Shown: positions 4,796-49,746, numbered from the stretch's first letter. The stretch: 50,422 bases of DNA from an uncultured Gammaproteobacteria bacterium (GCA_964445095.1 CAYUJR010000005.1:1-50422), one strand, 5' to 3'. Notes: generated by a model from the letters alone, not told the origin. Numbers and translations are program-made.

Positions 4796-7291
4796 TCAAG
4801 CCGCAGAACGAAAGGTGCTGGATACAGTGGTAGGTCTTACTACTCCATTGCTATCTTTTTTGACCAAAGTCATTCTGAGGAGAGGCGTATGGCAGCGTCG
4901 GGCATTTTCCATGGCCGTTCGGGAGGGTTTAAAAGCTGTGGGAAGCCATACTCGCTTACCGCGAGTGGCGCCTGGACGTGCTTTCCCCTTTCTGACATCC
5001 TTTCTGTTAATTGAGTCAGGGTCGGTAGGTATTAGTTGGAAAATTTCTCTCTCTGCTCCAGGTGCCAGTTCAGCAGCTAAACGGTCCAGATCTATTTGTT
5101 CTTCTTGAACTGTTCCTCCATCCACCTCTCTTTGGGTGGTAATAATATAGTCTGCGCTTTCTCTGAGCAGATCTTCAACACTTCGGAGTGGCCGGCGATT
5201 GCCATTGGTTCTTTCAGTTCTTTGCTGAGCTCGGTTAACAGCCGTGAGCAATCTTTTGGCTATTTCAGCTTTTGAGGGAACCAACAGGGCATGGGTTAGA
5301 GAAATTACCCGTTGATTTAATTGTAGGAATAACTCCCAGGAGATTTTTTCTTCAAGCGCCAGATCAGCCAAGTTTCCCTCTAATTCGCCGTTTTTATCTA
5401 TATAAAATGTGACAGTTAGATCTTCTCCTAAGTAAATTACTCCTTCTAAGTCACTTTGTTGAGCGGGGTTATAATTAGTAGAATGGGCTAACTGGATACG
5501 CGGATAATAATTTTCTCTGGCCCGAACCGGCTGTCTGTGATTTAGTCTAATAATAGTATCTCCTGCGCTTAAAGTTCCGTCTCTTTTACAAGTTTTAGCA
5601 TTGGGATTGAGATCAACCCAGGCTTGACGTAAATCTTTTTGTAATTGGGCAACTTCTTCTAGTGTTAGTTTTTGTTTAAACACCTGGCCTAACGCGTGTG
5701 TAATTTGTTCTTCGCGGGTTAATTCATGAGTTTCTGGAGACGGGGTTGGCTTGGCTGGTTCTGCGTTTTCCTCAAAAATAATTGCTTGGTTAGGAAGAGA
5801 ATTCATTGGTTTGAGGTGGCCCAAAACTCTACCACTTCCTGCATCTATATACGCATCTCCTACACGTAAAAACCTCCATTCTGATCTCGTCACAATCTCT
5901 AAAAGTTCTTCATTAGATATGCTAGGGTCGATATCAATCAGTGAGGATAAGTATATTCTTGCAAGCGTTAATTTTACCTCGTCGGAGATAGCTTTGGATC
6001 TGATAATATCAGAAAAAAGAAAGTTGCCTGCTACATCATCTTTTTCAAAAACAGCTGCTAAGAGAAGCGCTGCCGTAAGCTTTTTCCATAATTCTTGTTC
6101 AGATCCTGATTGATTTGAAAAATTAGCAAGACTAATAATAATCGGGAGAAAGTGATGCTTTTCATGACCTAAAAATTTTCCAGAATGATCTACGATTGGA
6201 CTTTCCCAATATTCGGTGCCAACTAATAGATTAATTAAAACTCTTCTTGTTTCTGAATTAATTCTTGGATTAGCTAAGGTTTCTGCCATAACGAAGATAG
6301 CGTTTTTTAATCCCTCTGGCGAGCTGGTGGCGTTTTTTTTAAATCCTAAAAGATATTCTCTTCCTGAATCTGGTAAGTCAAACGTTGATCTTAAATCATT
6401 TTTCCGAAAAAAGATTTTTAATATAGAACAAGTAGCAACAATGGCTAGTCGCAAAGACTCTTCATCAAGTGGTTTTGTTAAAGCAGTTTTTACCCTTCTT
6501 CCAACGGTCATGACAAAATCTTGCCAGTCGGCAGGTCGTGGTACCATCGCATTCGGCATTCTTTGTCCCATTTTTCGTTCATATGCAAAAAGCTCAGCGT
6601 TACCTATAAGCATAAGCTGTTCTTCCAGAGTTAACCCTTCTTGTTTTTGAGGCTTTTCTTCTGGAACCAACTTTTTGTTAGGTTTTTCTTTGAGAGCTAT
6701 ATAATTAGGTTTAAGTAAATTAGATAGCAAAGTTCCTACGGATTGAAATTCCGGTTTTAATTTAGTCAAAACATAATAACTGACTTCTGCAACTCTCAAA
6801 TTAAAAACGAAAAACTCATTTCTATCGGGAATAGCCGTGAGAAAGTCAGGTATTCTTCTTTCTGTCAAATCGGTTAATACAGCCATAGTATCTAAAGCAT
6901 CCGGCGTAACTTCTTGAGCTTTTGTGGCACGATCGGCCAAAACTTCTATGCCTGCCGCCAGGTGGCCAGGGTCAAGAGATATAGTTTCCCAAAAAGCTTC
7001 TGTAGCTTCTGGCGTTGGAGCTCCATGAGCAAATAAACTATCGATTAAGTCTCGGGTTTCCTCCAGGGCTTGTAAATATGCCCCAAAACTTTCGCTAGGT
7101 CTGATAATGGGAAGAACATCCGTTGCTTCTCTCCATTGGCCTTCTGATGCCGGATGGGTTTGTACAAAATTTACCGCTGGTATTGCAGGTGGAGAAGGGT
7201 TTTTCGCTTCGTATCCTCTTCTCCGAGAAAGTAAACGGCGGTCCCGTCGAGAAAGGCCAGTTGTAAAGTTTTTTCCTTCTTTTCCATTCAT
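4796..7291 (-). CDS. Large hypothetical protein (~831 aa)
   Basis: Long ORF with no recognised domain. Start re-placed at ATG 7291, 8 nt after TGcTATACT (7305-7300), with TTGCAT as -35. Confidence 0.7.
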   Translation of the reverse strand: MNGKEGKNFTTGLSRRDRRLLSRRRGYEAKNPSPPAIPAVNFVQTHPASEGQWREATDVLPIIRPSESFGAYLQALEETRDLIDSLFAHGAPTPEATEAFWETISLDPGHLAAGIEVLADRATKAQEVTPDALDTMAVLTDLTERRIPDFLTAIPDRNEFFVFNLRVAEVSYYVLTKLKPEFQSVGTLLSNLLKPNYIALKEKPNKKLVPEEKPQKQEGLTLEEQLMLIGNAELFAYERKMGQRMPNAMVPRPADWQDFVMTVGRRVKTALTKPLDEESLRLAIVATCSILKIFFRKNDLRSTFDLPDSGREYLLGFKKNATSSPEGLKNAIFVMAETLANPRINSETRRVLINLLVGTEYWESPIVDHSGKFLGHEKHHFLPIIISLANFSNQSGSEQELWKKLTAALLLAAVFEKDDVAGNFLFSDIIRSKAISDEVKLTLARIYLSSLIDIDPSISNEELLEIVTRSEWRFLRVGDAYIDAGSGRVLGHLKPMNSLPNQAIIFEENAEPAKPTPSPETHELTREEQITHALGQVFKQKLTLEEVAQLQKDLRQAWVDLNPNAKTCKRDGTLSAGDTIIRLNHRQPVRARENYYPRIQLAHSTNYNPAQQSDLEGVIYLGEDLTVTFYIDKNGELEGNLADLALEEKISWELFLQLNQRVISLTHALLVPSKAEIAKRLLTAVNRAQQRTERTNGNRRPLRSVEDLLRESADYIITTQREVDGGTVQEEQIDLDRLAAELAPGAEREIFQLIPTDPDSINRKDVRKGKARPGATRGKRVWLPTAFKPSRTAMENARRCHTPLLRMTLVKKDSNGVVRPTTVSSTFRSAA

Positions 7292-43344: not shown

Positions 43345-44369
43345 ACTTTACTGGCTTTGTCAAAAGCGTCTGACATAATTTTTACGACATCACTACTCGG
43401 TTCATCAACAGTAAACATAAGAGAAAGAGCCAGAAAGGCCTGCCACACCAGCATACCCTTGCCATTAAGAGTTTTAAAACCAGCCTCTCGTGCTTGTTGA
43501 AGCATTGGCGTTTCTACCGGATTATAGATTAGGTCGGCAAAAACAACATCTTTCCTCTTTCCTTTTAAGACACGGAGAGCATTTGCTGAAAGTTGATGAT
43601 TTTCTTTTAGAGAAATGCTAGTTGGTGCAAGAGACGAGTAAGGTTCTTCCGGCTTTTCTGCCTGGCCTTTAGCCGAGGCATTTAACACTAAATCAAAAGT
43701 CCCCGACCCCACGAGTTGCGGAATTTTTTGTTCTTCAATTGTCCAAAGCTTATTTGCTGAATAGAATCTTTCTAAATGAGCTACCAGTCTTGCTGAATTT
43801 TCAGCAGTTCTATTAGCAATCGTGACTCTTTCCACACCTGCATCCAGCAAGGCGGGGACTACGCCTCTGGCTCCGCCGCCTGCTCCAACTAGTAAAACCG
43901 ACAGCCCTTGAAAATTAGGAATGATCGTTTTTAAGTTTTTTATCTCTCCTTCTCCATCGGTGTTATAGCCCACCAGCATTTCTTCTCTGGCCACCACTGT
44001 ATTAACAGCTCCGGCCTTACGTGCCGACTCGTCAATGCTGCCCCCGAGCCTTGGTATTTGTTCTAAAACGAATCTCTTCCAGGGCATACCCACATTAAAA
44101 CCAATACAGTTGGCGTCTTGACGAATAATCTTCATCATTTTTTTGACTGCGCTTTCTGTGGGAATATCTAAAGCTTGATAATAAGCGTGAATTCTCAAAG
44201 CCTCAAATGCCGCATTCCACATATCAGGAGACTTACTATAAGGAGAAATAACCTCTCCAAATAAAAATATACCCATGACATCACCTGACAATTTTTCAAC
44301 CCCTTTTCTATCAGTGTCTAACTTATTAGTAATCAGTGACGCAATTTCTTGTAATTTTTCTACTTTCAT
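43341..44369 (-). CDS. aroE: Shikimate dehydrogenase family protein
   Basis: Motifs SKSP, GAVNTV, NTDG, GAGGGAR, IANRT, DLIYNP and GMLVWQA. Confidence 0.88.
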   Translation of the reverse strand: MKVEKLQEIASLITNKLDTDRKGVEKLSGDVMGIFLFGEVISPYSKSPDMWNAAFEALRIHAYYQALDIPTESAVKKMMKIIRQDANCIGFNVGMPWKRFVLEQIPRLGGSIDESARKAGAVNTVVAREEMLVGYNTDGEGEIKNLKTIIPNFQGLSVLLVGAGGGARGVVPALLDAGVERVTIANRTAENSARLVAHLERFYSANKLWTIEEQKIPQLVGSGTFDLVLNASAKGQAEKPEEPYSSLAPTSISLKENHQLSANALRVLKGKRKDVVFADLIYNPVETPMLQQAREAGFKTLNGKGMLVWQAFLALSLMFTVDEPSSDVVKIMSDAFDKASKV

Positions 44370-44376
44370 AGGCAAT

Positions 44377-44426
44377 AAAAAACCTCCCCTTCTTGGGAGG
44401 TTAAGTATAGCAAGAGCTAACCTCCC
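44377..44426 (-). terminator. Attenuator (terminator plus antiterminator) of the aro operon
   Basis: GGGAGGTTAG ... TAACCTCCC-aagaag-GGGAGG-TTTTTT. Confidence 0.85.
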
Positions 44427-44473
44427 TACGGCGTAAGGTAAAAGAAACCGAAGGTTTTGGTTAGTTTCTGCAT
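44426..44473 (-). CDS. Phe/Tyr-rich leader peptide MQKLTKTFGFFYLTP
   Basis: 15-codon ORF between promoter TTGACA(44513-44508)-17-TATATT(44490-44485) and the terminator preceding aroE. Confidence 0.85.
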   Translation of the reverse strand: MQKLTKTFGFFYLTP

Positions 44474-44490
44474 AAGTTATTTATAATATA

Positions 44491-44841
44491 TCAGATAGTT
44501 TTTATCTTGTCAACAATGACCTTAAAGGCGGTGGGATCGGTTACTACCAAATCGGCCAGAATTTTTCTGTCTAATTCGATGTGAGCCTTCTTCAGTCTAT
44601 TGATAAAAAGACTATAAGAAAGTTCTTCTTTTTTAACAGCCTCCCCAATTCTGGTGATCCACAGTCGGCGGAAATCTCGTTTTCGCAGTTTTCTGCCGTG
44701 ATAAGCGTAAGCTCCGGCGTGCAAAGCGGCTTGACGGGCTACTCGAACAAGCTTACTTTTTGTCCCCCGATAACCCTTCGTTAATTTTAATAACTTTTTG
44801 TGTCTTCGGCGTGATGTTATTCCTCTTTTAACTCTAGCCAT
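44491..44841 (-). CDS. rplT: 50S ribosomal protein L20
   Basis: Motifs [19 protein letters not shown] and LDRKILADL. Confidence 0.97.
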
Positions 44842-45031
44842 ATCCTAATAACTTTTTAATATTTCTGGCTTGTTTTCCAATTAATTGAGTCGGCTCTTTA
44901 TATCTTCTCAATTGTTTCTTTGTCTTTTTTGCTTTTAAATGGCGGGAGTATTGGTGACCACGTAAAATTTTTCCCTTTTTGGTGATTTTAAATCGCTTGA
45001 GTATCCCCTTTTTTGTTTTCATCTTTCGCAT
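44834..45031 (-). CDS. rpmI: 50S ribosomal protein L35
   Basis: KMKTKKG-KRFKIT; lies between infC and rplT. Confidence 0.93.
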
Positions 45032-45566
45032 AAGCTTTTTTCCTTTCTGGAGAGAGCAGGGTAATTAGTAATTTTCCCTCAAAACGCGGCTCTCTATCAA
45101 CTTTCGAGATATCCGTAAGTCCTCCTATGAAAGTTTGCAAAACTCTTTGACCAAATTCCGGATGGGTGATTTGGCGGCCGGAAAACTTAACAACCAGTCT
45201 TATTTTATTTCCTTGTTGTAAAAATTTTTGAGCATTGGATAACTTGGTTTTTAAATCATGTTTGTGTGTAAATGGTCCTAACCTTATTTCTTTAGTTTCG
45301 GAAGAATGAGTTTTTTTTCGTTCCTCTCGGCGTCTTTTTTCTTCCTGATAAAGAAACTTTTTAAAATCTATTATTTTAACAACAGGAGGAACAGCGTTAG
45401 ATGCAATTTCAACCAAATCAAGCTGTGCCTCTTGCGCTTTCTTTAGTGCTTCATCTTTAGCGACTACTCCAATCTGTTTCCCTGTCTCATCAATCAACCG
45501 CACTTCTCGCGCTTGAATTTGTTGATTTAACCGATAAAACTTTTTTTGACTTGCCACTCGTTTAAT
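44988..45566 (-). CDS. infC: Translation initiation factor IF-3 (probable ATT start)
   Basis: Motifs NQQIQAREVRLID, DLVEIA and KEIRL. An in-frame ATT at 45566 follows GAGG plus 6 nt. Confidence 0.93.
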   Translation of the reverse strand: MKRVASQKKFYRLNQQIQAREVRLIDETGKQIGVVAKDEALKKAQEAQLDLVEIASNAVPPVVKIIDFKKFLYQEEKRRREERKKTHSSETKEIRLGPFTHKHDLKTKLSNAQKFLQQGNKIRLVVKFSGRQITHPEFGQRVLQTFIGGLTDISKVDREPRFEGKLLITLLSPERKKAYAKDENKKGDTQAI

Positions 45567-47307
45567 TTTTTTCCTCGATTTGGGTTTTTAAATTTTCTAT
45601 AAATTGTGACAAACTTTTTTGACCCAAATCTTTTCCCTCCCTTGTTCGAAGAGAGATAGCATCTCCGGCTTTCTCCTTATCCCCCATTATAACCATATAG
45701 GGTACCTTTTGTAAAGTGGCGTCGCGGATTTTGGCCTGCATAGTTTGAGAGCGGTCATCAAGTTCTACCTTAAATCCATTACTTCTTAATTTACTAGCTA
45801 CCAAGTTGGCCTGCTTAACATGCCGCTCGGCAATGGGAATAATCATTATTTGAACCGGAGAAAGCCACAGCGGAAAAGCTCCGGCATAATGTTCAATTAA
45901 AATACCAAAAAAGCGGTGGACTGAGCCAAAAATAGCCCGATGGATCATCACCGGCCGTTGTTCTTTGCCATTGCTATCAATGTAGGTAATCTTAAAGCGC
46001 TCCGGCATGGCAAAATCCAGCTGGATAGTGCCGCATTGCCACTGTCGTCCCAGCGAATCGGTTAGATGAAAATCAATTTTGGGTCCATAGAAAGCTCCGT
46101 CTCCCGGATTTATTTGATAATCAAACTTAAAATCCTCTAGTACTTTTTGAAGAATTTTTTCTGATTTTTCCCACATTTGGGCCGTGCCGATAGATTTTTC
46201 CGGTCTGGTCGACAGCTCGACTTTCATTTTTTTAAAGTGGAAAGGCTCGTAAATTGCCAGAGCCAGTTCTATCACTTTTTTAATCTCTTCTTCAATCTGG
46301 TCTTCCTTGCAAAAAATATGAGCATCGTCTTGCCTAAAGGCCCGCTCTCGCAGCAGCCCATTTAAAGTGCCCGATGGTTCAAATCTATGCACCAATCCCA
46401 ACTCTCTCCATCTAATCGGCAGTTCCCGATAGGAGTGAGGCCGGTTTTTATAAATAATAATCATCCCCGGACAATTCATGGGTTTTAAAGCCATGTCTTT
46501 ATCGTCGGCTGAAGTAAAGTACATTTTATCTTTATAATTATCCCAGTGTCCTGATATCTTCCATACGTCGTTAGTTAAAACAACTGGTCCGGATACCTCT
46601 TCGTAGCCCGCTTGATCATGCATTTTGTTCCAAAAGTCAATTAATGGTTGGCGCATTCTCATACCGTTGGGATGCCAAAAAATAAAGCCCGGTCCTTCCT
46701 CGTGAAAACTAAATAGGTCAAGTTCGGCGCCGATTTTTTTATGGTCTCTTTTTTTGGCCTCCTCCTGCTGCCAGAGATATTGGTCGAGTTCCTCTTGGGT
46801 AGGAAAACAAGTACCATAAATTCGAGTTAACATTTTATTTTTCTCATCTCCCCGCCAATAGGCTCCGGCAACAGATAACAGTTTAAAAGCCCCAATCTCT
46901 TTGGCTAGATTTTGGGCATGTCCACCTTTACACAGATCCAGGAATGATCCCTGCTTAGTTTCCGTAATTTTTTCCCCTTGAGTGGATAACGCATCGATTA
47001 GCTCTAATTTATATGGATTCCATGAGAAATCTTTTTTGGCTTGTTTCACTGAAACCTGCTTTATCTGAAAATCATCCCAGGTTTTCAAGATTTGACGCAT
47101 TTTATTTTCAATTTTTGGAAAATCTACATTCGAGATTGTAATAGCTCCTAAATCGAAATCTTGATAAAAACCATTTTCTATTGAAGGGCCAATAGCATTT
47201 TTGGCATCAGGGAAAAGTTCTAACACGGCAGCCGCCAAAAGATGGGCGCAGGAATGGCGAATATTTTGTAATTTTTGGCCAAACGGCTTATTATTGTTAT
47301 TCTTCAT
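45562..47307 (-). CDS. thrS: Threonine--tRNA ligase
   Basis: Motifs RHSCAHL, DLCKGGH, RDHKKIG, KPMNCP, FYGPKID and WQCGTIQLDF. Confidence 0.97.
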   Translation of the reverse strand: MKNNNNKPFGQKLQNIRHSCAHLLAAAVLELFPDAKNAIGPSIENGFYQDFDLGAITISNVDFPKIENKMRQILKTWDDFQIKQVSVKQAKKDFSWNPYKLELIDALSTQGEKITETKQGSFLDLCKGGHAQNLAKEIGAFKLLSVAGAYWRGDEKNKMLTRIYGTCFPTQEELDQYLWQQEEAKKRDHKKIGAELDLFSFHEEGPGFIFWHPNGMRMRQPLIDFWNKMHDQAGYEEVSGPVVLTNDVWKISGHWDNYKDKMYFTSADDKDMALKPMNCPGMIIIYKNRPHSYRELPIRWRELGLVHRFEPSGTLNGLLRERAFRQDDAHIFCKEDQIEEEIKKVIELALAIYEPFHFKKMKVELSTRPEKSIGTAQMWEKSEKILQKVLEDFKFDYQINPGDGAFYGPKIDFHLTDSLGRQWQCGTIQLDFAMPERFKITYIDSNGKEQRPVMIHRAIFGSVHRFFGILIEHYAGAFPLWLSPVQIMIIPIAERHVKQANLVASKLRSNGFKVELDDRSQTMQAKIRDATLQKVPYMVIMGDKEKAGDAISLRTREGKDLGQKSLSQFIENLKTQIEEKN

Positions 47308-47313
47308 AAAAAT

Positions 47314-47370
47314 AAAAAAACCTCCCGCCTGGGAGGAGTTTTGCTATAACGGCGCAAACAACAACCTCCC
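47314..47370 (-). terminator. Attenuator (terminator plus antiterminator) of thrS
   Basis: GGGAGGTT ... AACTCCTCCC-aggc-GGGAGG-TTTTTTT. Confidence 0.85.
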
Positions 47371-47418
47371 TCAAGAGAGCTTGGTTGTCGTCGTAGAAGC
47401 TATAGCGCTTTGTTTCAT
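47371..47418 (-). CDS. Thr-rich leader peptide MKQSAIASTTTTKLS
   Basis: ACG ACG ACA ACC run; promoter TTGACA(47459-47454)-17-TATAGT(47436-47431). Confidence 0.88.
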   Translation of the reverse strand: MKQSAIASTTTTKLS

Positions 47419-47447
47419 AAGATAAAAGTTACTATACCAAAACAACC

Positions 47448-48749
47448 TCAAGTTGTCAATAGATAATTTTTGAAGTCGGAATATAGATTAGATAACGCGA
47501 TTGTTTTTTTCTTTTTTTGTATAATCTCTTTGAGATTTTTGGGCAGAGCCACTTTTTGTTTTAGGGCTCTTTCTATTGTTTCCGGGAATTTGGCCGGATG
47601 GGCTGTGGCCAAAAAAATATTACTTGATGGTTCTTGGTTTTGCTGAATATACGCTTTGAGTCCCAAGTAAGCTACGGCACTATGCGGATCGAGAATATAA
47701 TGGTACCTTTTGTCAACTTCCCTAATGGCTTGAACAGTTTCTTCGTCGGTAAAACTTTTACTAAAAATATCTTTTTGCATTAATTTAAGATTATTTTGAT
47801 AAAGCTCGCGGATTCTGGCTAAATTATTGGGATTACCTACATCCATGGCATTAGAAAGAGTTTGTTTGGCAGGTTTCGGTTTAAAAGCTCCGGTTTGAAC
47901 AAAATGGGTAAAAACGTCATTAATATTGGTGGCAGCTACCAGTCGAGCCTTAGGTAGACCCATTTTTTTAGCAAGAACCCCGGCTGTAAAATTGCCCAGA
48001 TTACCGCAGGGAATAGAAAAAACCACCGGCCTTGCTTTGTTTGGCAGTTGAGCCCAGGCGTAAAAATAATAAAAAACTTGCGGCAGGAGACGAGCAATGT
48101 TAATAGAATTAGCAGAAGTCAGGGTTAATCTTCTTTTTAATGTTTTATCTAAAAATGCTTCTTTGATCAGTTTTTGACAGTCATCAAATGTTCCTTCTAT
48201 CTCGAGAGTAATAATATTCCCTCCCATGGTAGTAAGTTGAAGTTCCTGCGTTGGACTAACCTTTCCCTTGGGATAAAGTATAATCACTTTAACTTGGGGA
48301 ACATTATAAAATCCCGCTGCCACCGCGCTGCCGGTGTCGCCCGAGGTAGCCACCATGACAGTGGTAGTTTTTTTATTGCTATTGGCTAAAGCGGAAGTGA
48401 GTCTGGCCATAAAACGGGCCCCAAAATCTTTAAACGACAGCGTGGGGCCATGAAAAAGTTCTAAAACCCAAAGGTTATTATCTAATTTTTTAAGATTGAC
48501 TGGGAAGTTCATGCTTTCATTGACAATTTGTCGTAAGTTTTTAGTTGCGATATCGCCTGCAAAAAGCATTTTTGCCAGCTCTAAGGCCACCTCGGTAAAA
48601 GAGAGAAAGCGAAATTTTTCTATCATTTTGGCTGAAAGACGGGGAATCACTCGTGGCAGATAAAGTCCTCCGTCCGGGGCCAGACCGGTAAGAGTAGCTT
48701 GAGCCAGAGAGGCAGATGGGCTTTCTCGGCCAGTACTGTAATAGTCCAT
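47448..48749 (-). CDS. thrC: Threonine synthase
   Basis: Motifs GLAPDGGLY, ELFHGPTLSFKD, ATSGDTG, NSINIAR and TAHPAKF. Confidence 0.95.
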   Translation of the reverse strand: MDYYSTGRESPSASLAQATLTGLAPDGGLYLPRVIPRLSAKMIEKFRFLSFTEVALELAKMLFAGDIATKNLRQIVNESMNFPVNLKKLDNNLWVLELFHGPTLSFKDFGARFMARLTSALANSNKKTTTVMVATSGDTGSAVAAGFYNVPQVKVIILYPKGKVSPTQELQLTTMGGNIITLEIEGTFDDCQKLIKEAFLDKTLKRRLTLTSANSINIARLLPQVFYYFYAWAQLPNKARPVVFSIPCGNLGNFTAGVLAKKMGLPKARLVAATNINDVFTHFVQTGAFKPKPAKQTLSNAMDVGNPNNLARIRELYQNNLKLMQKDIFSKSFTDEETVQAIREVDKRYHYILDPHSAVAYLGLKAYIQQNQEPSSNIFLATAHPAKFPETIERALKQKVALPKNLKEIIQKKKKTIALSNLYSDFKNYLLTT

Positions 48750-48813
48750 AATTAAATCTATAAATTTAGCCTCGATTATACCGAGAAATTATAGATAAAA
48801 ATATATAATAAAG

Positions 48814-48874
48814 TGACCGCTGGTGGACTTGAACCACCGACCTTCACAATGTCAATGTGACGCTCTAGCCAACT
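48814..48874 (-). pseudogene. tRNA-Val(GAC) 3' fragment lacking the first ~13 nt
   Basis: AGTTGGCTA GAGC G TCACA TT-GAC-AT TGTGA AGGTC GGTGG TTCAAGT CCACC AGCGGTC A. Confidence 0.75.
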
Positions 48875-48880
48875 CAGGCG

Positions 48881-49055
48881 TGGGCATTGTAGGATTTTGG
48901 ACCTACGGCCTGTCGCACCTGCCCGCCGCGGTGTGCGCCTGCATGGATTTGAACCATGGACCTCTTCGATGTCAACGAAGCGCTCTACCCCTGAGCTACA
49001 AGCGCATTTTGACAGGCGGGCATCAAGCGACTACTCTACCCTAAGCTAAGCGCCC
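48881..49055 (-). other. Split tRNA-like gene whose anticodon loop encloses the intact tRNA-Val
   Basis: 5' half GGGCGCT TA GCTT AGGGTA GAGT A GTCGC (49055-49027). 3' half GCGAC AGGCC GTAGG TCCAAAAT CCTAC AATGCCC A (48916-48881). Confidence 0.65.
48934..49005 (-). tRNA. tRNA-Val(GAC)
   Basis: Full cloverleaf GCGCTTG TA GCTC AGGGGTA GAGC G CTTCG TT-GAC-AT CGAAG AGGTC CATGG TTCAAAT CCATG CAGGCGC A; CCA not encoded. Confidence 0.93.
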
Positions 49056-49309
49056 AATAAAATTCTTTTGCTAACAACTATTCTATCAATTATGTCCCTT
49101 CTCTTTAACCTTTTTAGTTTATACTCAATACTTCTTGCTTTGCTCAAGCTTTCGTATCGCTGACTAAAAACAAGCTTGAAAGGTCTTGTTAATTGCGTAT
49201 ACTTTAATCTTCCAAAATTATGCTCAACTAATCTTCTTTCTAAATTATTAGTTGATCCGATGTAATACCGATCATTTACTAAAGATCTTAGAATATATAG
49301 TATTCCCAT
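49046..49309 (-). CDS. GIY-YIG nuclease family protein
   Basis: LYILRS...YYIGSTNNLERRLVEHN...RPFKLV...IEYKLKRLK. Confidence 0.88.
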   Translation of the reverse strand: MGILYILRSLVNDRYYIGSTNNLERRLVEHNFGRLKYTQLTRPFKLVFSQRYESLSKARSIEYKLKRLKRRDIIDRIVVSKRILLGA

Positions 49310-49367
49310 TGAACCTATGACCCGTCCGACGTCATGTCGGACTGCTCTACCACTAAACTAACCGTCC
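49308..49367 (-). pseudogene. tRNA-like 5' fragment that breaks off in the T-loop at the GIY-YIG start codon
   Basis: GGACGGT TA GTTT AGTGGTA GAGC A GTCCGAC ATGAC GTCGGAC GGGTC ATAGG TTCA|ATG. Confidence 0.65.
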
Positions 49368-49428
49368 AGACCTCGCCCATTTTACCAACTTTAGTTAATA
49401 AATGCTACTAGGGATTAGAAAGTTATGC

Positions 49429-49746
49429 TTATTTGTCCGTAGGTTCGACCTGTTCCCAGACGCCTCCTGCGCGTATTGTTAGGTCATTAAACCAATCACC
49501 AACCTCATTTAACAACATTGCATCTTGATGTGTAACAGTTGGCTTTTGTTCAGGATGGCCATTGTTGCCTTCAGACAAAAGGTGTCTTGCCAGCTCATGA
49601 GTACCACTGACGTGTGGTGGTAAATCTCTACCCAGCGCACGCATTGCCAACATAAGACAACTGACGCCAACGGCAAGATGATGACGTGCTTCCCTCAAAC
49701 CTTCCTGCTCTTCTCCATGATTATTTCCTCTAGCTTGTTCTACCAT
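49429..49746 (-). CDS. Hypothetical protein (105 aa)
   Basis: ORF with strong SD AAGGAGGTG; no recognised domain. Confidence 0.7.
   Translation of the reverse strand: MVEQARGNNHGEEQEGLREARHHLAVGVSCLMLAMRALGRDLPPHVSGTHELARHLLSEGNNGHPEQKPTVTHQDAMLLNEVGDWFNDLTIRAGGVWEQVEPTDK

Follow-up and report, generated by a model that had tools for sequence, protein, structure and literature searches.

A candidate threonine leader-peptide attenuator upstream of thrS in an uncultured groundwater bacterium and related leaders in Patescibacteria

How might a bacterium with a small genome adjust the synthesis of threonyl-tRNA synthetase (ThrRS) to the supply of charged tRNA-Thr? This question was raised by the short leader of thrS, the ThrRS gene, in GCA_964445095.1 CAYUJR010000005.1:1-50422, a stretch of 50,422 nucleotides that is hereafter called the window. 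The genome (818,293 bases in total, 818 kb) came from groundwater and represents an uncultured, reduced-genome lineage. Two solutions are established for thrS elsewhere, the T-box of Firmicutes and the autoregulation by ThrRS at the translational operator of E. coli, and both raise ThrRS when the charging of tRNA-Thr falls. A preliminary description of this DNA had proposed a different regulatory solution, in which a leader peptide with four threonine codons attenuates thrS together with the coupled infC-rpmI-rplT genes. In the present study, we analyzed the leader by sequence inspection, folding, and comparison with related genomes. The results make it highly probable that the leader attenuates transcription by a ribosome-mediated (leader-peptide) mechanism, in which charged tRNA-Thr is sensed and the expression of thrS, and through it of infC-rpmI-rplT at least in part, is controlled.

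Anatomy and predicted folding of the thrS leader

The promoter, the upstream open reading frame (uORF), the GGGAGG/CCTCCC pair, and the terminator with seven T residues named in the preliminary description were all found at 47459-47308 on the minus strand, to which all leader coordinates refer (Table 1). In the promoter scan, the leader promoter TTGACA-17-TGnTATAGT scored 11/12 plus the TG extension. The ATG of the uORF was located 12 nt past the end of the -10 box, and the 5' untranslated region was estimated from the -10 position at approximately 5 nt. No Shine-Dalgarno (SD) sequence was present before the uORF, and the start was therefore considered near-leaderless. The GGGAGG of region 2 directly abuts the stop codon of the uORF. 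The three classical pairings (1:2, 2:3, and 3:4) were all present. The 1:2 pairing is a 10-bp helix formed by GACGACAACC, which lies in the Thr codons, and GGUUGUUGUU, and it is surrounded by an outer 8-bp helix (GCUAUAGC/GUUAUAGC) that had not been mentioned before.

The folding energies of these elements were compared with those of shuffled sequences. The 105-nt leader folded at -39.5 kcal/mol (z = -4.39), and none of 200 dinucleotide shuffles was as stable. The 2:3 duplex GGGAGG:CCUCCC yielded -11.1 kcal/mol, which was reached once when the upstream segment was shuffled 500 times by mononucleotides, and the terminator hairpin CCTCCC-AGGC-GGGAGG yielded -10.3 kcal/mol. In a masking test, the RNA covered by the ribosome (the A-site codon plus 13 nt) was removed and the remainder was refolded. 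The free RNA adopted the terminator (6/6 pairs). A ribosome placed on any one of the Thr codons, all four of which were tried, gave the antiterminator between regions 2 and 3 instead (6/6 pairs), and with the ribosome at the stop codon the terminator was restored (6/6 pairs). The modelled outcome is that of the classical attenuation scheme, as in trp, thr, and pheST. Collectively, sequence and folding established the anatomy of the leader and its alternative pairings.

Strain variants of the leader were obtained from DNA contigs of four groundwater runs, which belong to two studies other than the probable source study. Two leader differences were among the best-supported variants listed. The change 47349 A>G, found in all four runs, converts a G.U pair of the outer helix to G-C, and an extra A after 47355, found in three of the four, falls in an unpaired stretch. 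Over a 6.1-kb stretch, the runs showed a further 730 single-letter and 29 indel differences.

Based on this arrangement, we infer that the uORF is translated, that transcription is terminated in vivo, and that the switch responds to Thr-tRNA. The polymerase would start at the strong promoter approximately 5 nt before the uORF AUG, and a ribosome would load on the near-leaderless 5' end of the RNA. When Thr-tRNA is plentiful, the ribosome would reach the UGA and cover the abutting GGGAGG of region 2; region 3 (CCUCCC) would then pair with region 4 (GGGAGG), and transcription would stop in the U-tract, 13 nt before thrS. When Thr-tRNA is scarce, the ribosome would stall on ACG-ACG-ACA-ACC and open the 1:2 helix, leaving region 2 free to pair with region 3, so that the terminator would be blocked and the polymerase would read into thrS. 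If no ribosome is present, the 1:2 helix would lock region 2 and the terminator would form; the same hairpin would therefore also end transcripts that read through from thrC. In read-through RNA, region 4 would be single-stranded and usable as the SD sequence of thrS, and thus translation of thrS may switch on along with its transcription. Since region 3 carries the 16S anti-SD sequence and region 2 abuts the uORF stop, the anti-SD of the terminating ribosome itself may, more speculatively, bind region 2 and thereby act as a direct competitor of region 3.

Two further scans bear on the dependence of thrS on this switch. No promoter-like site was detected in this window between the attenuator terminator and the thrS ATG, and thrS therefore appears to depend on read-through. 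The terminator scan found no terminator between thrC and the thrS leader, and the attenuator terminator therefore probably ends thrC transcripts too. For the downstream genes, the proposed gating of infC-rpmI-rplT held only in part. The spacing of thrS and infC is 4 nt. The promoter scan detected a promoter-like site within thrS at 45715-45686 (score 11/12), which could drive infC independently.

Table 1. Positions of the thrS leader elements, of the neighboring genes, and of similar attenuators (window coordinates, or contig C22 where given)
Feature	Position	Strand	Remarks
thrC (threonine synthase)	47448..48749	-	stop TGA 47450-47448
-35 box TTGACA	47454..47459	-	in the last codons (3' end) of thrC
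TG-extended -10 box TGgTATAGT	47431..47439	-	TATAGT at 47436-47431, 17-nt spacer from the -35 box
Leader uORF MKQSAIASTTTTKLS	47371..47418	-	15 codons; ATG 47418, stop TGA 47373-47371
Outer helix, 5' strand GCUAUAGC	47399..47406	-	encloses the 1:2 helix
Four consecutive regulatory Thr codons ACG ACG ACA ACC	47383..47394	-	codons 9-12
Region 1 (5' strand of the 1:2 helix)	47383-47392	-	within the Thr codons
Region 2	47357..47370	-	GGGAGG 47370-47365, partner of region 3; GGUUGUUGUU 47366-47357, partner of the Thr codons
Outer helix, 3' strand GUUAUAGC	47343..47350	-
Region 3 CCTCCC (terminator 5' arm)	47331..47336	-	followed by loop AGGC
Region 4 GGGAGG (terminator 3' arm)	47321..47326	-	sole SD-like sequence before thrS, 13 nt from its ATG
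U-tract T7-A-T5 of the intrinsic terminator	47308..47320	-	next to the thrS ATG
thrS	45562..47307	-	581 aa; tRNA-synt_2b, HGTP_anticodon, tRNA_SAD; ATG at 47307
infC	45557-44988	-	4 nt after thrS
rpmI	45031-44834	-
rplT	44841-44491	-
infC-rpmI-rplT block	44491..45557	-
Aromatic attenuator	44370-44513	-	between rplT and aroE; same build as the thrS leader
Leu-rich attenuator	50418-50262	-	34-codon uORF; region 2 inside the uORF; next ORF 100 aa, 50236-49934, own SD
Ile-rich attenuator	49920-49767	-	uORF MSLQSNQIIGIIIAFQGGGLLR; region 2 inside the uORF; next ORF 105 aa, 49746-49429, own SD
Arg attenuator	C22, ~6349-6450	-	uORF MKIEITVLADRRRTFS, three Arg codons; stop fused to GGGAGG; terminator AACCTCCC/GGGAGGTT

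Threonine leaders in relatives and the wider family

The preliminary description had looked to orthologous leaders for the Thr run, and we therefore collected ThrRS relatives from 40 genomes of the same order (29 non-self loci, L003-L031), from metagenome contigs (80 loci), and from species-representative genomes (80 loci). The nearest ones were Microgenomates-type Patescibacteria (for example Gottesman-, Roizman-, Woese-, and Amesbacteria), with best identities of 59-64% and none of them close. The run was kept: a uORF with 3-6 Thr codons and a terminator was found upstream of thrS at 16 sequence-distinct loci in related Patescibacteria. A set of 150 distinct regions, each the 220 nt upstream of thrS, was screened for uORFs that have four or more identical residues in five and are followed by a terminator; the residue was Thr in seven cases, Ala in one, and any other in none. 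When at least three in five were accepted, Thr was found nine times and M, L, A, and R once each. Over the full flanks, where the 190 loci include duplicates, Thr accounted for 16 rows, Ala for four, Phe for three, His for two, and Ser and Leu for one each. These results indicated that Thr is the sole enriched residue in terminator-bearing uORFs upstream of thrS. The Thr run was conserved across leaders and the remainder of the peptide was not, as exemplified by MQLCLITMTTTTPR, MNLVTTTTTVAL, MNQAVTLTTTTTR, and MMNAIRTTTTTTS.

The switch was compared among the same leaders. Region 2 co-varies with the terminator arm by lineage, with six distinct arm sequences each matched by its partner: GGGAGG/CCTCCC, GGAGGG/CCCTCC, GCGTGG/CCCACGC (L128), GGGGTT/AACCCC (L149), GCGGGG/CCCCGC (L071), and GGGGG/TCCCC (L014). 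Because a MAFFT alignment of nine leaders lost the helix register, this co-variation was listed as arm and partner for each sequence. Counted from the last base of the stop codon, region 2 started at -2 to +3 nt in seven of the nine proximal leaders. The 2:3 duplex was better than at least 495 of 500 shuffles in six of the nine, and in a seventh (L149) it surpassed 491 of 500. In the Thr leaders, region 2 was followed by a GT-rich stretch that is complementary to the ACN codons. In the masking test, six of eight other leaders flipped at most Thr positions. In most relatives the uORF ATG lay 6-7 nt past the -10 box, which would make these uORFs truly leaderless; the distances were read by eye, taking a TTGACA-like box and a spacer of 17 nt as the guide, because automatic picking of the -10 box was noisy. 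Comparison thus established the conservation and the specificity of the Thr run.

The full-flank scan added seven Thr leaders at 230-790 nt upstream of thrS. The intervening gene was a small open reading frame (ORF) with its own SD in six of them and a 225-aa ORF in L071, the start of which resembles HAD phosphatases when read by eye. At L005, L009, L015, L057, L062, L122, and L193, the Thr attenuator and thrS are separated by an ORF of 48-103 aa that has an SD of its own and for which no family was detected. Other features of the relatives are recorded here. In the majority, thrS was preceded at a short distance by no more than an extended -10 box of the form TGnTATAGT, and in many relatives (L004-L015, L014, L041, L054, L072, L176) the distance from a box of this type to the thrS ATG was 4-25 nt. 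This position suggests leaderless or very-short-leader thrS mRNAs, with a second promoter after the attenuator where a leader exists. Many relatives (L019-L031 and others) carry a short ThrRS, approximately 410 aa in length and without the N-terminal part. Its gene often follows one for a small membrane protein with the motif GG(I/L)AWG(I/L)GATVG; one such ORF matched DUF5665 (PF18910, L205:2794-3045). Farther from thrS, a His-rich uORF (MAMAMHHHRHHAAAAVVCLVV) with a terminator was located approximately 1 kb upstream in L151 and L160 (Herpetosiphon), and a Phe-run uORF (MYPTQAFTFFFFTSQLRGALGNL) with a terminator approximately 1.8 kb upstream in L077, L079, and L135 (Amesbacteria). Both are probably leaders of neighboring his or phe genes.

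The frequency of the switch was then determined in 245 genomes of the order. The pattern of (ACN)x4, 2-26 nt, GGAGG, 8-38 nt, and CCTCC was present in 18 of them. In 12 of these genomes, the match preceded thrS on the same strand at a distance of less than 1 kb; in two it lay approximately 2 kb upstream of thrS, in one it was truncated by a contig end, and in three it was unlinked and atypical in sequence. The switch without its codons, GGAGG-N8-38-CCTCC-N3-10-GGAGGTTTTT, was detected in 132/245 genomes, compared with 0/245 for the reversed control. The uORFs and downstream genes of switch-bearing relatives were sorted among 30 loci listed (L192-L221). Thr-type uORFs preceded ThrRS at two of these loci, and uORFs with aromatic runs preceded the PheRS alpha gene (two loci), shikimate kinase (aroK), and EPSP synthase (aroA). 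At a third PheRS-alpha locus, L198, no ATG uORF was detected. An ORF of unknown function (76-136 aa) often stood between the aromatic leader and pheS. Leu or Ile runs preceded small ORFs with no Pfam match, and LLL was the commonest uORF type.

The genome under study holds further copies of the same switch. A regular-expression search of the whole genome for a CCTCC-N3-12-GGAGG hairpin with a T-run returned only five elements, and in all five a uORF lay close to a promoter and a copy of GGAGG was present upstream. A looser genome scan (uORF, residue run, terminator, and gene) gave approximately 50 rows, which beyond the five GGAGG/CCTCC elements were mostly intra-coding and noise-like. The leader between rplT and aroE has a promoter TTGACA-17-TATATT that overlaps the end of rplT, and its uORF MQKLTKTFGFFYLTP (44473-44426, minus strand) contains the run F-G-F-F-Y with the stop fused to GGGAGG. 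Its terminator AACCTCCC...GGGGAGGTT at 44402-44381 and a T-run are followed by the aroE ATG at 44369 and then by aroQ. The Arg leader, the fold of which flips in the masking test, is followed by genes for a GNAT acetyltransferase (178 aa), an M20 peptidase (363 aa), and argS (580 aa). The leader codons match the downstream genes in these paralogues (RRR with argS, aromatic residues with aroE-aroQ). The 105-aa and 100-aa ORFs behind the Ile and Leu leaders matched no Pfam family above cut-off, and BLASTP gave no match between them and the small ORFs behind leaders in 30 relative loci. No terminator-like site was found from the Ile leader to the thrS attenuator, and the Ile leader might therefore feed the tRNA genes and thrC.

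On balance, these results incline us to regard the thrS leader as one copy of an undescribed, order-wide module of Patescibacteria, in which leaderless Thr, Arg, Leu, Ile, and aromatic leaders are mounted on one GGAGG/CCUCC/GGAGG switch with a U-tract and gate aminoacyl-tRNA synthetase genes (thrS, argS, pheS), shikimate genes, and small ORFs beside a few T-boxes. The order-wide family would provide a ready set of candidate starvation-responsive genes, with many small ORFs of unknown function among them. If the module operates as proposed, transcription and translation are tightly coupled in these bacteria, near-leaderless mRNAs are translated, and the amino-acid supply is sensed gene by gene.

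Competing explanations and opposing evidence

Several observations weigh against attenuation by the thrS leader peptide. The uORF has no SD and a 5' untranslated region of approximately 5 nt rather than 0, so that its efficient initiation is an assumption, and the terminator has a short stem of 6 bp (-10.3 kcal/mol). In the masking test, L149 never flipped, L128 flipped at the first Thr only, and the aroE leader of the same genome kept the terminator as its minimum-energy fold. The reversed-pattern control for (ACN)x4 was not empty, with 13 matches in seven genomes. Most relatives lack the attenuator: a Thr leader was found in 9 of the 150 distinct proximal regions. In five leader-bearing relatives (L014, L041, L054, L072, and L176), the segment from the terminator to thrS contains a -10-like box; the attenuator therefore cannot be the sole gate there and would add to a basal promoter. 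Finally, a sub-threshold T-box match was found approximately 180 nt upstream of thrS at L113:2148-2306 (plus strand; 39.1 bits against a cut-off of 93, E 3.5e-5), where the ThrRS is 50% identical. Related lineages may therefore use different sensors for thrS.

Of the alternatives, the one that survives best, though unlikely, is a mainly translational hairpin with little or no termination, in which CCUCCC would sequester GGGAGG as the SD of thrS and the upstream GGGAGG would free it on a stall. Region 4 is indeed the sole SD-like sequence before thrS, as its counterpart is before aroE, and neighboring genes carry AGGAGGT approximately 7 nt before the ATG. However, the hairpin is followed by T7-A-T5, the signature of an intrinsic terminator, and the spacing from this SD to the ATG is long (13 nt). 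Moreover, the genes that follow the Ile, Leu, and Arg paralogues, like those behind the leaders of many relatives, possess a separate SD past the terminator, and the switch would therefore work without SD sequestration. Translational masking of the SD is best seen as a layer added to attenuation rather than as a rival to it.

Sensing of general translation stress (ribosome slowing or antibiotics) by the uORF, rather than of threonine as such, appears less probable still. Inducible resistance leaders are known to operate by such stalling, and in the masking test a stall anywhere in codons 9-12 would free region 2. On the other hand, the conserved part of the peptide is the Thr run and the rest varies, and the runs in the paralogous leaders (Arg, aromatic, Ile, or Leu) correspond to argS, aro genes, and pheS.

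We give very little credence to the possibility that the hairpin is a mere thrC terminator, with the uORF and the upstream GGGAGG present by coincidence and thrS expressed by leak-through or from an unseen promoter. It is true that thrC has no other terminator after its end. However, the same arrangement precedes thrS in relatives in which the upstream gene differs from thrC, the Thr-run specificity and the co-variation of region 2 with the terminator arm tell against coincidence, and the promoter-like site sought between the terminator and thrS was not found. This explanation is already contradicted by the comparative sequence data.

Binding of ThrRS to the leader through mimicry of the tRNA-Thr anticodon arm, or a T-box-like tRNA sensor, is just as improbable: both are established for thrS elsewhere and one relative has the weak T-box match described above, but the leader of 105 nt has no T-box match at E up to 10 and its hairpin loops, UCUU and AGGC, contain no Thr anticodon triplet.

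Known RNA families were searched in the window and the genome. The T-box family (RF00230) had no match in 44000-49500 at E up to 10, on which the T-box reading of the thrS leader was rejected, and an operator of the E. coli type was rejected by inspection of the loops. The Rfam Thr_leader family (RF00506) did not match the leader at E up to 10. The only cis-regulatory match on the leader was a sub-threshold one to Phe_leader (RF01859; 22.3 bits against a cut-off of 55), and a reading as an L20 leader was rejected, no cis-regulatory family reaching threshold there. In the whole window, no leader family reached its gathering score; the thrS leader thus lies outside the Rfam families at threshold. 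Elsewhere in the genome, two sub-threshold T-box matches were detected, C7:23958-24136 (plus strand) and C12:21624-21832 (minus strand), with 45.1 and 45.7 bits against the cut-off of 93; both have terminators. The C7 match precedes an ORF that looks like a tRNA-binding domain and a ProRS-like gene, as labelled by eye. Given these two matches, leader peptides would complement T-boxes rather than replace them. Among 121 genomes of the order, T-box matches with E <= 0.001 were found in 37, and two matches were above the cut-off.

Gene neighborhood and comparison with known systems

Every gene in the thrS part of the window lies on the minus strand, in the order tRNA-Val, thrC, a 140-nt gap, thrS, infC, rpmI, rplT, a second gap, aroE, and aroQ. 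As the preliminary description had stated, thrC has no directly upstream leader of the thrS type: the 70 nt from the tRNA-like gene to the thrC ATG hold -10-like boxes only. Farther upstream (48821-49375), an ORF of the GIY-YIG type (49309-49046, minus strand, 87 aa) was observed amid tRNA sequences. Beside it lie tRNA-Val(GAC) at 49005-48933 and a partial tRNA match at 48872-48821 (30.8 bits), both on the minus strand, and by eye a tRNA-like stretch overlaps the start of the ORF. It may be a mobile endonuclease inserted into the tRNA cluster.

The leader can be compared with several known systems. In the T-box and the E. coli operator, thrS responds to uncharged tRNA or to the ThrRS protein, whereas the proposed sensor here is the translating ribosome. 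Leader-peptide attenuation of a synthetase gene is established for pheST. Like E. coli pheST (pheM) and the trp, thr, his, and leu operons, the present leader combines a short ORF near the promoter, in which cognate codons form a run, with the 1:2, 2:3, and 3:4 pairings and a terminator just before the gene, and like pheST its target is an aminoacyl-tRNA synthetase gene. The gene order in E. coli is thrS-infC-rpmI-rplT-pheM-pheST; here the aromatic leader likewise directly follows rplT, but it stands ahead of aroE-aroQ. Unlike pheST and the classical leaders, the uORF has no SD and begins 12 nt past the -10 box, the switch is built of SD-like GGGAGG and anti-SD-like CCUCCC, and the thrS leader belongs to no Rfam family, Thr_leader giving no match and Phe_leader a score far below its cut-off.

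A further comparison is with proposed leader peptides outside Proteobacteria. Our literature search, which was thin on subscription journals, found no report on attenuation in Patescibacteria, and no report for this lineage of a threonyl-tRNA synthetase leader peptide with threonine codons or of a Patescibacteria T-box riboswitch. Classical leader attenuators before synthetase genes have been proposed for trpS and leuS of Streptomyces (PMC1262725) and, with a His leader, for hisS paralogues of bacilli (PMC2965389); these concern other amino acids and other phyla, and the accessible parts of these papers report no threonine case. Attenuation by a leader peptide is supported here, but for thrS itself this regulatory solution has precedents. 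In D. deserti, Deide_06409 is annotated as a leaderless thrS leader peptide and is proposed to attenuate thrS, with approximately 20,000 reads for the leader and approximately 750 for thrS (PMC4007540, tables S2, S8, and S9); its peptide contains two non-adjacent Thr residues. In S. lividans TK24, thrL (SLIV_19412) is likewise annotated as a leaderless thrS leader peptide proposed to attenuate thrS; it has two Thr residues, and its termination is stated to be unclear (PMC8079986, Table 4). Both of these short ORFs lie directly upstream of thrS. Set against the textbook modes of thrS control, these published thrS leader peptides (MKPLAHHSGLVMRGVWPRRMPYLPGLVTRTLRA in D. deserti and MKRVRPFLETTPGFVPAR in S. 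lividans), as given in the accessible parts of the two papers, have two Thr each and no clear terminator. The leader described here differs from both in its four consecutive Thr codons, its complete switch, its clear U-tract terminator, and its phylum. With 4-6 consecutive Thr codons, a full switch, and conservation with compensatory change, it belongs to the clearest case of a thrS leader peptide that we found.

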